Below, one piece after another: positions 17,107 through 21,131 of a stretch of 24,408 nt of DNA. Each line of letters starts with the position of its first letter. Position 1 is the first letter of the stretch. Under the pieces are notes generated by a model. That model was given only the letters and a program-made list of their open reading frames with translations. It was not told the DNA's origin and made no database searches. This stretch comes from Nanobdellota archaeon (GTDB lineage: Archaea > Nanobdellota > Nanobdellia > SCGC-AAA011-G17 > GW2011-AR20): positions 1 to 24,408 of the forward strand of contig JAHJQH010000071.1 of NCBI GenBank assembly GCA_018819375.1, read 5' to 3'. The position numbers were made by a program, and so were the translations under genes.

Positions 17107-18840
17107 CTAAAACTCATCACAACTAAGGGAATTTTTTTTCTTCTTAATGTCCTCAGCAACTTTCTTGATAAACGCATCAACACCAACACCAAATTTTACT
17201 TTTCCATAATAATCACGAACAGCTAATTTTCCTTCTTTCTGCTCCTTGTCACCAACAGTAACCATCAAGGGAATTTTCTCAATCTGCGCATCCCTGACCT
17301 TTCTCGGTATGCTCTCACGTCTGTCATCAATCTCAACCCTCAACTCTTTTTCCCTCATTTTCCCCATCACTTCATTGGCAAATTTAAGATTACTGTCAGA
17401 AACAGTTATTATCCTCGCGTGAACAGGACTCAGCCACAAAGGCAGTTTTCCAGCATAATGTTCTAATAAAATCCCAATGAACCTCTCCAAGCTTCCATAC
17501 ACTACCCTATGCAAAATATAAGGAATATGTTTTTTGCCGTCCTTGCCTTCATAATGAATGTTAAACCTCTTTGGTAAGTTAAAATCAAGTTGCACAGTAG
17601 CGCATTGCCATTTCCTGCCAAGACAGTCCTTTATTTGTACATCTAAACTAGGTCCATAAAATTTTGCTTCACCTTCCAAGGTTTCGCTTTTTAGGTTTAA
17701 CTTTTTGAGTGCTTTAAGAATTGAGTCCTGCGCCCAGTCCCATTCATTGTCAGAACCCAGGTATTTGTCTTTCTTTTTCTTGCCCCTGACAGAAAGCGTG
17801 AATTTATAATCCTTGAATCCAAAAACAGAAAGCATTTCCTGTGTTAACTTAACAACACCAATAATTTCGTCCCCTAATTGCTCCGGAGTACAAAATATGT
17901 GTGCATCATCTTGTGTGAACATCCTGACCCTGAACAACCCGCTTAAAACACCAGAAATCTCGTGCCTGTGAACAAGACCAAGTTCTCCAACTCTCAAAGG
18001 CAGCTCTTTGTAAGAATGAATCTTTTGTTTATACACCAGCATCCCCCCAGGACAATTCATGGGCTTGATTGCACATTCTTTATCATCAATTTTTGTGACA
18101 TACATATTCTCCTTATACAACTTCCAGTGACCTGACTTATCCCATAATTCCCTGTTAAGAATAATTGGGGTTTTTATCTCTTGATAACCACATTCATAAT
18201 GCTTCTCTCTCCAGAATTCAATCAATTGGTTAAATATGAAAAGCCCTTTATGATGCCAGAATGGAAAACCCGGCCCATATTCAGAAAAACTAAATAAGTC
18301 CATCTCTTTTCCTATTTTCCTGTGATCCCTTAACTTAGCCTCTTCCAAGGATTTCAAGTAATCATCAAGTTCTTTCTTAGTTTCAAAAGCAGCCCCATAA
18401 ATTCTTGTGAGCATCTTGTTCTTGGAATCACCCCTCCAGTAAGCTCCAGCGAGTTTCAATAATTTAAATGCCTTAATCTCTCCAGTAGTCTTAACATGAG
18501 GTCCAGAACATAAATCAATAAAATCACCTGTTTTATAAAAAATAGGCTTCTTTAGTTCTTTTAACAAATCCAGTTTATAAGGCTCATCTTTCAAGCTCTT
18601 TTTTGCTTCTGCAATTGTTTTTTCAATCCTCTCAAACTTCAGATTTTTCTTAATAATCTCCTTCATTTTTTTCTCAATCTTGTCTAAATCTCCTTCAGAA
18701 ATCTTAAGATTATCAAAGTCATAATAAAAACCATCTTCAATAGCAGGACCAATACCCAACTTAACATCAGGATACAAGTTCTTCACAGCAATAGCTAACA
18801 CGTGTGATGCAGAATGTCTTAACACCTCTAAATTAACCAT
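17107..18840 (-). CDS. thrS: Threonine--tRNA ligase, bacterial type, lacking the N-terminal TGS domain
   Basis: LRHSASH, GPAIEDGFYYDF, DLCSGPH editing domain; RDHRKIG, KPMNCP, HRHE, RVRMFTQDDAHIF, QLDF, HRVVYGSLERF; ATG at 18840. Confidence 0.97.
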   Translation of the reverse strand: MVNLEVLRHSASHVLAIAVKNLYPDVKLGIGPAIEDGFYYDFDNLKISEGDLDKIEKKMKEIIKKNLKFERIEKTIAEAKKSLKDEPYKLDLLKELKKPIFYKTGDFIDLCSGPHVKTTGEIKAFKLLKLAGAYWRGDSKNKMLTRIYGAAFETKKELDDYLKSLEEAKLRDHRKIGKEMDLFSFSEYGPGFPFWHHKGLFIFNQLIEFWREKHYECGYQEIKTPIILNRELWDKSGHWKLYKENMYVTKIDDKECAIKPMNCPGGMLVYKQKIHSYKELPLRVGELGLVHRHEISGVLSGLFRVRMFTQDDAHIFCTPEQLGDEIIGVVKLTQEMLSVFGFKDYKFTLSVRGKKKKDKYLGSDNEWDWAQDSILKALKKLNLKSETLEGEAKFYGPSLDVQIKDCLGRKWQCATVQLDFNLPKRFNIHYEGKDGKKHIPYILHRVVYGSLERFIGILLEHYAGKLPLWLSPVHARIITVSDSNLKFANEVMGKMREKELRVEIDDRRESIPRKVRDAQIEKIPLMVTVGDKEQKEGKLAVRDYYGKVKFGVGVDAFIKKVAEDIKKKKNSLSCDEF

Positions 18841-18872
18841 ATTAAAACTCAATTACCAGACCTATTTAAAGA

Positions 18873-19742
18873 TTACCCTAACTTATTAAAAAGCCCTTCA
18901 AGTCCATCCAATTCCCTGCATTTATTAATTCTTTCCCTTATTCTTGCACCACCCCGCATCCCTTTTGTAAACAAAATTGCATGATTCCGGATATTGTTAA
19001 AATTCACTCCAAACTTCTTGGCTAATTCCAAATAATCCAAAAATATTTCCTTGCTGTCACAGTTATTCTTACCAGCAAATATTCTTGGATTTTTAAGTGC
19101 AGTCCTGCCAATCATCACATAGTCACACCCTGTTTCTTTCATCATTTTTTCAGCATCCTCAGTATTATTCACGTCACCATTCCCAATCACGACAATATCA
19201 ACATTATCCCCTACTTCCTTAATCACTTTCCAGTCAGATTTTCCAGAATATCCCTGCTTGACAGTCCGTCCATGCACAATAATCGCACTTCCCCCGCACC
19301 TTTCAATAATCTTGGCAATCTCGACAACACCCCTGCATTTTCTCACTTTCACACTAACAGGAATATTCAGGCCATCAACAAGAGCAGAAATAATATTCTT
19401 AATCTCTTTCTTGTTCCTAAGTAAAGCAGCACCGTAACCACCCTGCATTATGTCAACACGAGGGCAGCCCATATTCACATCTATCACATTCACCTTTTTT
19501 TCAAACTTCTTTCCAGCCTCAAGCATAACACCAGCATTCTTGCCAAACAACTGCAGTCCAACAGGTTTTTCTTCATTAACTAACTGCACCTCAACCCCGC
19601 CATTAACAACTGCGTTTGCACTAATCATCTCAGTAAAACACATCCCAGCTCCAAATCTGCGGCACAAAACCCTAAAAGCAACATCACTATATCCGACCAT
19701 AGGTGCAAGAATCAATTTTGATTTCAGTTGAGGGAATTTCAT
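18873..19742 (-). CDS. dus: tRNA-dihydrouridine synthase (DusB-like)
   Basis: LAPMVG, TEMIS, QLFG, DVNMGCP, HGRT, GNGDV, MIGR motifs. Confidence 0.94.
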   Translation of the reverse strand: MKFPQLKSKLILAPMVGYSDVAFRVLCRRFGAGMCFTEMISANAVVNGGVEVQLVNEEKPVGLQLFGKNAGVMLEAGKKFEKKVNVIDVNMGCPRVDIMQGGYGAALLRNKKEIKNIISALVDGLNIPVSVKVRKCRGVVEIAKIIERCGGSAIIVHGRTVKQGYSGKSDWKVIKEVGDNVDIVVIGNGDVNNTEDAEKMMKETGCDYVMIGRTALKNPRIFAGKNNCDSKEIFLDYLELAKKFGVNFNNIRNHAILFTKGMRGGARIRERINKCRELDGLEGLFNKLG

Positions 19743-19894
19743 TTTAAAAATTTCTCCGCCTTCAGTTTATGTTTAGGGTTATTAAAACCAATAATTTCAT
19801 ACCACTCCTTTAATTGTGATACTCCATTCATTTGGATTCTTACTTTCCCTTTACCAATATCATAAACTCCAAATCTAAAACCATAGTTTCTCAA
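19739..19894 (-). pseudogene. C-terminal remnant of a LAGLIDADG-type homing endonuclease domain (frame open to 19999)
   Basis: LRNYGF...VRIQMNG.SQLKEWYEIIGFNNPKHKLK resembles the end of archaeal/intein LAGLIDADG domains; no LAGLIDADG helix upstream; stop overlaps the dus ATG. Confidence 0.6.
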
Positions 19895-19961
19895 TGAAAA
19901 ACATGAATTAATGAAACATTCAAAATTTATAAAAGTAATTAGGTGGTGGGCTGATCTGATA

Positions 19962-20160
19962 TAGCGGGAGAAGGATTTGAACCTCCGACCTTTACCCAAT
20001 CCAAAGAAGATTCCTTAGGACTTCCGGGTTTCGCCGAGGGCAAGAAATGCCTAACCCCATATGAGCCTTCCGCACTAGATAGTTTCCTAATCTAATTCGA
20101 CGGGCACTCCTGGCTGCCCCATCCATATAGACAAAACACAATTTTTGAGTTTCACTCGCT
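19962..20160 (-). tRNA. Initiator tRNA-Met(CAT) with four introns: 20125-20156 (4/5), 20068-20097 (29/30), 20030-20059 (37/38), 19992-20023 (43/44); CCA not encoded
   Basis: Joined exons give AGCGGGA TG GGGC AGCCAGGAGT GCCC G TCGGG CT CAT AA CCCGG AGGTC GGAGG TTCAAAT CCTTC TCCCGCT A (75 nt): complete cloverleaf, A1-U72, three G-C pairs at 29-31/39-41. Confidence 0.9.
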
Positions 20161-20275
20161 ATGATAGGCAACCAACCCACCAGTCAAATTCAACCAAACT
20201 CCTTTTAAAAGACTTTCGCTTGTCAGAAAGTTAAAGGCAGAAAGGTTAATAAACAACGCAAAATAACTAAAAGCT

Positions 20276-20468: not shown

Positions 20469-21131
20469 ATGCTAATTTGTGGGATAGATGAGGCCAGGAG
20501 AGGTCCGGTAATCGGGCCAATGGTCCTATGTGGGGTTCTGATAGAAGAAAAAGACACACAAAAACTAAAGCAGATGGGAGTAAAAGATTCCAAGCTCCTA
20601 ACACCAAAAAAAAGGGAGTTTCTTGAACCAAGAATAAAAAAAGTAGTTCATTCTTATAAGGCAATTATTATACCCCCACAAGAGATAGACGAAGCACTCG
20701 AATCCCCGGAATTAAACTTAAACAAGTTAGAAGCAATAAAAACTGCAATGATTCTGAACTGCCTAAAACCAGGCAAGGCAATCATAGATTGCCCAAGCAC
20801 AAACATAAAAGCATACTTAAACTATCTAAGAATTTATCTAAAAGACAAAAAATTAAATTTAAAAGCAGAGCACAATGCAGAAAGATATCCTGTAGTCGCA
20901 GCAGCCTCAATAATAGCAAAAACAACTGCAGATAGGGAGTTAAAAAAAATCCAGTCAAGAATAAAAGAAAACATAGGGAGCGGATATCCCTCAGATCCGA
21001 TAACCCAAGAATTTCTAAAAAACAATCACAAAAAATACCTGGAAATATTCAGGAAAACATGGGCAAGTTACAAGAGGGTTACAAGCCCAAAACAATCCAC
21101 CCTACCAGAATTCAAAACCATTCAAAAGTAG
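20469..21131 (+). CDS. rnhB: Ribonuclease HII with atypical motifs
   Basis: GIDEA(R)RGPVIGPMV, GVKDSK, AAASIIAK, IGSGYPSDP. Confidence 0.93.
   Translation: MLICGIDEARRGPVIGPMVLCGVLIEEKDTQKLKQMGVKDSKLLTPKKREFLEPRIKKVVHSYKAIIIPPQEIDEALESPELNLNKLEAIKTAMILNCLKPGKAIIDCPSTNIKAYLNYLRIYLKDKKLNLKAEHNAERYPVVAAASIIAKTTADRELKKIQSRIKENIGSGYPSDPITQEFLKNNHKKYLEIFRKTWASYKRVTSPKQSTLPEFKTIQK

Follow-up and report, generated by a model that had tools for sequence, protein, structure and literature searches.

Can a tRNA gene that is divided into five exons, the shortest of them 4 nt long, be the working initiator gene of its genome? The question arises on the minus strand of the window, the whole 24,408-nt stretch of DNA analysed here, which belongs to a Woesearchaeota (DPANN) archaeon (genome G000) and in which an earlier note had read positions 19962 to 20160 as an initiator tRNA interrupted by four introns. 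Archaeal tRNA genes have been described with up to three introns (tRNAscan-SE 2.0 paper, PMC8450103), and the four in this gene are one above that peer-reviewed maximum. On the evidence set out below, we consider it very probable that this is a working initiator tRNA-Met gene with four BHB introns and that it is processed in the way that we propose.

Results

Gene structure and spliced product

The whole tRNA-Met(CAU) gene (19962..20160) lies on the minus strand, as do all of its parts, is 199 nt long and consists of five exons and four introns; CCA is not encoded. Exon 1 is the tetranucleotide AGCG (20157..20160), which supplies tRNA positions 1-4 in a register fixed by the BHB, and it is followed by the 32-nt intron 1 at 4/5 (20125..20156). 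Exon 2 (20098..20124, 27 nt) covers positions 5-29 and ends at the 30-nt intron 2, inserted at 29/30 (20068..20097). Exon 3, GGCTCATA (20060..20067), spans positions 30-37 with the CAU anticodon inside it, and is separated by the 30-nt intron 3 at the canonical 37/38 site (20030..20059) from exon 4, ACCCGG (20024..20029), which provides positions 38-43. The 32-nt intron 4 follows at 43/44 (19992..20023), and the 30-nt exon 5 (19962..19991) completes the molecule with positions 44-73, that is, the variable loop, the T arm, the 3' acceptor strand and the discriminator A.

When the 199-nt locus is cut as 4/32/27/30/8/30/6/32/30 nt, which are exactly the exon and intron lengths given in the earlier note, the joined exons form a 75-nt sequence that ARAGORN reads as a perfect tRNA-Met(CAT) cloverleaf. 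Of the 199 nt, 124 are intronic, in agreement with the previously stated share of 62%. The spliced tRNA has a 7-bp acceptor stem beginning with A1:U72, a 4-bp D stem, a CUCAUAA anticodon loop, a 5-nt variable loop, a GGAGG/CCUUC T stem and discriminator A, and its anticodon stem closes with three G:C pairs, G29-31:C39-41 (GGG:CCC). The A1:U72 pair and the GGG:CCC block are marks of archaeal initiators, and in the ARAGORN drawing of the spliced sequence the CAU anticodon, A1:U72 and the three G:C pairs are all present. The spliced product is also the same as the intronless initiator gene of a relative, G053 (L006), at 74/75 positions.

A BHB was defined as two 3-nt bulges with a 4-bp helix between them and the splice after the second bulge nucleotide. 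For scoring, exon positions i-5 to i-2 were paired with intron positions -6 to -3, with the splice sites in the 3-nt bulges, while the inner helix (h') was taken from intron +2/-7 and the outer helix from i-6/i+2. Introns 1, 2 and 4 each have an exact BHB at the register set by the cloverleaf, with inner helices of 7, 7 and 5 bp, respectively. Intron 1 is a full hBHBh' whose central helix (H) is AUAG/CUAU (4/4 pairs) and whose 6-bp outer helix is formed with the leader. Intron 2 combines a CCGU/GCGG central helix (4/4) with an AUUAGAU/AUCUAGU inner helix and a 2-bp outer helix. Intron 4 is a relaxed HBh', in which the central ACCC/GGGU (4/4) and the inner AGUCC/GGAUU helices stand with 0 bp of outer helix. 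The helices claimed earlier for the 29/30 and 43/44 introns were recovered in the locus, as was the lack of an outer helix at 43/44.

Detection and chance

For introns 1, 2 and 4, the observed combination of H and h' was matched in <= 2e-4 of intron shuffles, and random sites in the window reached H 4/4 with h' >= 5 bp at a frequency of 2.9e-4. An approach that stripped BHBs permissively and then applied ARAGORN was dropped, having produced hundreds of false parses, among them 83 pseudo-tRNAs from this stretch alone; for this reason our case is built on orthology and exact registers and not on foldability alone.

The prediction that standard scanners would miss the gene was borne out: no tRNA was found in the unspliced window by ARAGORN, with intron mode on or off, or by Rfam at gathering thresholds, and when the Rfam tRNA model was run over the whole G000 genome this contig had no match even at E <= 1. 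When the mature sequence was aligned, with splicing allowed, around each of the 1465 CTCAT sites in the 706-kb assembly, this locus scored 122 and the runner-up 53. The earlier note had also proposed a check for another iMet gene, and none was found in the G000 assembly (98 contigs, 706 kb, ~35% GC, 84.6% complete). The locus is present in identical form in an independent 2025 groundwater DNA run, and the DNA runs that contain it are groundwater metagenomes.

In the same assembly, ARAGORN returned zero tRNAs for Met, Asn, Asp, Gln, His, Phe and Trp. Two further places, G000:C2:7707-7925 and G000:C90:8811-9047, hold matching acceptor-stem halves together with an intact T arm, 219 and 237 nt apart; judging by this arrangement, they are probably further multi-intron tRNA genes.

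Orthologues with zero to seven introns

Relatives were searched in the family (27 genomes) and in the order (240 genomes) by BLAST and pattern searches followed by spliced alignment. Beside the G000 gene, 38 orthologues were curated, every one of which gives a 75-nt tRNA-Met(CAT) by ARAGORN when spliced, and the reversed-pattern control of the order scan yielded zero matches. Their introns number from 0 to 7 per gene and occupy at least 13 insertion sites: 4/5, 5/6 to 7/8, 15/16, 20a/21, 27/28, 28/29 and 29/30 in the 5' part, and 37/38, 43/44, 44/45, 53/54, 59/60 and 64/65 in the 3' part.

In nearly every orthologue intron, H is 4/4 at the predicted register, and among introns at the same site the inner helices vary in sequence while their pairing is kept. 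Changes in the exon are also matched in the intron strand of H. At 53/54 the combinations CGTT:GACG, CGGT:GCCG, CGTC:GACG and CAGT:GCTG occur; at 28/29, TCCG:CGGA is found in some genes and TTCG:CGAA in others; and at 15/16, GGGC:GCCT and GGAC:GTCC. Such tracking of exon changes by the intron strand is the mark left by selection for splicing.

Four-intron genes occur in at least 15/240 genomes of the order, a tally made up of 12 curated from the order scan (G071, G072, G076, G084, G099, G121, G040, G159, G209, G046, G212 and G218) together with G048, G042 and G000. Higher counts are found in the same family. G009 has five introns, at 7/8, 29/30, 37/38, 43/44 and 59/60 (L131, G009:C20, about 2600-2790). 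In G001, what appear to be seven introns, at 7/8, 20a/21, 29/30, 37/38, 43/44, 53/54 and 64/65, are spread over a gene that spans 242 nt and has exons of 6-15 nt (L020/L117, G001:C21, minus strand, about 46560-46800); each has an H of at least 3/4 and an h' of at least 3 bp, and the joined exons give a valid tRNA-Met(CAT). BLAST with an intronless query found no intact copy in G001, which is ~100% complete. The seven-intron gene would exceed every published count that we found.

The weak 37/38 intron

The canonical intron carries a weak BHB. Its outer helix is the 5-bp anticodon stem and its inner helix, GGGG/CCUC, has 4 bp, and between these flanks the central helix CUCA:GGCG is composed of C:G, U-C, C:G and A-G, that is, 2/4 pairs, which is no better than shuffles (P 0.44). 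The BHB conformation lies 14 kcal/mol above the MFE, and in relatives with better helices the corresponding figure is 7-15 kcal/mol. Two alternative registers were tried, 36/37 and a TCGG partner with a 5-nt bulge, and neither was better than 37/38. Intron 3 is strikingly complementary to the D arm in the MFE fold, but when tested by dinucleotide shuffling this fell short of significance (P about 0.09).

Most relatives have CUCA:UGAG at 37/38. G082, which belongs to another family, has a GGCG strand identical to that of G000 at this site (L125, G082:C43), and its inner helix is compensated, being UGGG/CCCA as against GGGG/CCUC in G000. The occurrence of the GGCG variant in G082 with a compensated inner helix argues that it is maintained and is not a one-off lesion. 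We consider that intron 3 may plausibly be excised.

This intron is central to the best of the alternatives, namely that the locus is a decaying, non-functional copy whose 37/38 insert is not excisable, and that the ~15% of the genome missing from the assembly contains the working initiator gene. Such a reading draws on the central helix of intron 3, which cannot be told from shuffles, on the incompleteness of an assembly in 98 contigs, and on the mapping of three groundwater metatranscriptome runs, all three of which (3/3) left the locus without coverage. Given that every one of the 75 exon positions agrees with a perfect cloverleaf and that the intronless orthologue is identical at 74, that the other three BHBs and the leader helix are intact, that a promoter box is in place, that the weak GGCG strand has been kept with a compensated inner helix in a different family, and that relatives estimated to be 100% complete have intron-bearing copies only, we find decay distinctly improbable.

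Leader and promoter

In the working gene that we favour, the 5' leader would take part in splicing. Its positions -14 to -1 (20161..20174, minus strand) form one strand of the intron 1 helices: -2/-1 join A1-G2 in the central helix, and tRNA positions 6-17a find their partners in -8 to -3 and onward as far as -14, G12 being bulged out. Among the 25 loci compared, the leader-exon duplex of G000 is the strongest, at -16.9 kcal/mol, and the five loci with a 5'-acceptor intron all fall within the top seven.

The upstream regions of the same number of orthologous loci (25) were compared for promoter position. Where the 5' acceptor strand has no intron, nearly every locus has the start of a conserved aaaGCTTTAAAA box at -29 to -33; the exception is G005, whose box did not match the motif. 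Boxes at about -42 to -53 occur only in the five loci whose 5' acceptor strand is interrupted, at 4/5 to 7/8, including G039, for which the position of about -44 was read by eye. The TATA-like box of G000, TTTTAAAA (20203..20210, minus strand, -50 to -43), is displaced upstream by ~20 nt compared with most loci that lack a 5'-acceptor intron. A box at -29 to -33 implies almost leaderless transcripts in most loci, and the box at -50 in G000 a predicted leader of ~20 nt. The 4/5 intron has homologues in G039 and G002, both of which share its tcat|AGCG junction and its CUAU strand.

It could still be asked whether the gene is real and our parse of it wrong, with another AGCG as exon 1, trans-splicing, or fewer and longer introns. 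A 4-nt exon is not unique, an AGCG ~60 nt upstream ties with ours in alignment score, and permissive stripping followed by ARAGORN did draw 83 alternative 'tRNAs' from the stretch. The upstream AGCG was rejected as there is no BHB there, whereas a full hBHBh', with a central helix paired at 4/4 and a leader helix of 6-12 bp, is seen for the proposed AGCG alone. Since, in addition, the junction and the CUAU intron strand recur in G039 and G002, and the alternatives yield no initiator sequence that matches the orthologues, a wrong parse seems to us very improbable indeed.

Genomic context

The gene order around the locus is ThrRS (17107-18852, minus), Dus (18873-19742, minus), the tRNA and RNase HII (20469-21131, plus), the last with an uninterrupted DEARRGP motif and no BHB intron. 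Between Dus and the tRNA lie the last 51 codons of a LAGLIDADG homing endonuclease (19742..19894, minus), a neighbour of the tRNA gene and not a part of it. A complete gene of 192 aa, directly adjacent to the initiator tRNA in G007 (L015:1533-2111), shares 67% identity with this remnant (E 1e-23), and full or partial LAGLIDADG copies flank the initiator tRNA in at least 16 relatives. That the stretch is protein-coding (ORFs 19992-20180 and 19739-19999, minus) and not a tRNA gene is, in our view, extremely improbable: open frames of 62 and 86 aa do overlap the locus, and the LAGLIDADG remnant in the distal portion of the 86-aa frame is genuine, but neither frame has a Pfam match, the LAGLIDADG similarity is confined to residues 36-86, outside the tRNA, and the part that overlaps the tRNA matches relatives solely as tRNA exon sequence.

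Processing enzymes

G000 encodes an EndA of 206 aa (G000:C50:146-766, minus strand; L021) with the Pfam N and C domains and the Tyr/His/Lys triad kept. It aligns end to end with the M. jannaschii EndA (2.5e-31), and its best match is the N. equitans alpha subunit (3iey_A, 1e-35); its close relatives are from Candidatus Woesearchaeota or Nanoarchaeota, mostly of groundwater. No EndA paralogue was found in G000 by tblastn or Pfam, and five relatives, of which three are ~100% complete and one is a single contig, have exactly one EndA match each, in a frame of 185-242 aa. With a single EndA gene in G000 and in each of these five relatives, the enzyme looks like the alpha4 type, which is regarded in the literature as strict, and this counts against our reading.

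Broad-specificity EndA enzymes differ from strict alpha4 enzymes in having extra loops near the catalytic His or in the C-terminal domain, and the Lys-rich insertion of the N. equitans alpha subunit has been linked to cleavage of relaxed motifs (PMC5829648, PMC3239211, from which the loop definitions are also taken). The G000 EndA shows none of the known specificity loops (L1/CSL, L2/ASL, L3 Lys-rich insertion). Pairwise alignment detected no insertion relative to the M. jannaschii enzyme, and a gap of 6 residues falls at the position of the Lys-rich insertion in the N. equitans alpha subunit. What the G000 enzyme has in addition is limited to an N-terminal extension of ~40 aa, rich in Lys (12 residues), that the M. 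jannaschii EndA does not have.

RtcB is encoded in one 957-aa open frame (G000:C33:9-2699, minus strand). Its Pfam match falls in two parts, positions 1-50 and 49-407, that are ~1.4 kb apart, an arrangement that suggests an intein.

RNase P RNA was not found in the G000 assembly, nor was PIN_5/HARP. We considered a loss of RNase P as in N. equitans, but RNase P RNA is present in 14/27 family genomes, and its absence from G000 is probably due to assembly incompleteness.

Discussion

We read the locus as a real gene that is probably functional. The near-identity of its exons to an orthologue, the homologous and compensated introns of its relatives, the presence of EndA and RtcB, and the lack of another initiator gene in the assembly support its assignment as an initiator tRNA with BHB-type introns at 4/5, 29/30, 37/38 and 43/44.

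We propose the following model for its processing. Transcription would start ~20 nt upstream of position 1, directed by the TATA box displaced to -50. No nucleotide is shared between the BHB motifs of introns 1, 2 and 4, and all three regions are present in the MFE fold; the three motifs are thus predicted to form together in the primary transcript. For intron 1, the leader would act as one strand of the central and outer helices, and we infer that the leader helix keeps the 4-nt exon 1 in place between cleavage and ligation. Introns 2 and 4 would form their BHB motifs independently. A single EndA would then cut in the 3-nt bulges and RtcB would ligate the exons. A38-C41 are engaged in the central helix of intron 4, and as long as intron 2 is present G29 is kept apart from G30-31, so that the anticodon stem could form only after introns 2 and 4 have been removed. 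The 37/38 intron, with its mismatched central helix, would probably be removed last. Finally, RNase P would trim the leader, after which CCA would be added.

Several properties make this gene stand out: its intron count, a motif built by the leader together with a shifted promoter, a poorly paired canonical intron, and an EndA that is not expected to be permissive. If the reading is right, an essential tRNA has been overlooked by standard annotation, with the result that genomes seem to be without an initiator. In the leader-built BHB and its upstream-shifted promoter we would have a clear example of a promoter whose position has adapted to the needs of splicing. Many of the introns are of the relaxed HBh' kind and sit at non-canonical sites; if a loop-less, alpha4-like EndA serves them, this would challenge the view of alpha4 enzymes as strict. 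In addition, a series of 0 to 7 introns in one orthologue is ideal for asking how BHB introns arise, slide and vanish. Whether the initiator gene of the Woesearchaeales is a hotspot of ongoing intron gain and loss, served by a plain single-subunit EndA without known relaxed-BHB loops and with gain perhaps tied to the flanking LAGLIDADG genes, is a speculative extension that we would ourselves rate as rather unlikely.

Full-text searches of the literature on Woesearchaeota/DPANN tRNA introns or on 'four introns' yielded no published description of these genes. The nearest precedent within DPANN is the work of Kaneta et al. 2018 (PMC5829648), who found more disrupted tRNAs in DPANN lineages with alpha4-type EndA, reported incomplete DPANN tRNA sets and called for manual curation; unlike the present study, theirs gives no intron counts above three and does not describe the initiator gene. 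N. equitans resembles our case in that its alpha subunit is the nearest match of the G000 EndA. It differs in its trans-spliced tRNA halves and in an alpha-beta enzyme with the Lys-rich insertion, which is absent from the G000 EndA.

Multiple-intron tRNA genes are also a feature of the Thermoproteales (Pyrobaculum, Thermofilum, Caldivirga), and, in the account of Sugahara 2008 as relayed by PMC8450103 and PMC4090602, the likeness extends to overlapping motifs, so that some introns have to be removed for others to be able to fold, and to genes that standard scanners miss. [quoted passage not shown]

Asgard genomes likewise contain many multi-intron tRNAs (PMC11291895), and up to five interruptions of a single gene have been counted there in a preprint of October 2026 (bioRxiv 10.64898/2026.10.13.758758). 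The maximum of three given in the earlier note therefore holds for the peer-reviewed literature (PMC8450103) but neither for that preprint nor for the order studied here, in which four introns are common and five and seven occur. In the Asgard lineages Atabeyarchaeia and Freyarchaeia (PMC11291895, bioRxiv 10.64898/2026.10.13.758758), as in ours, introns are mostly non-canonical, many are missed by tRNAscan-SE, and gains have been repeated and lineage-specific. These lineages belong to another superphylum, and the preprint is silent on DPANN and on the initiator tRNA, the gene in which the series described here reaches seven introns, in G001.
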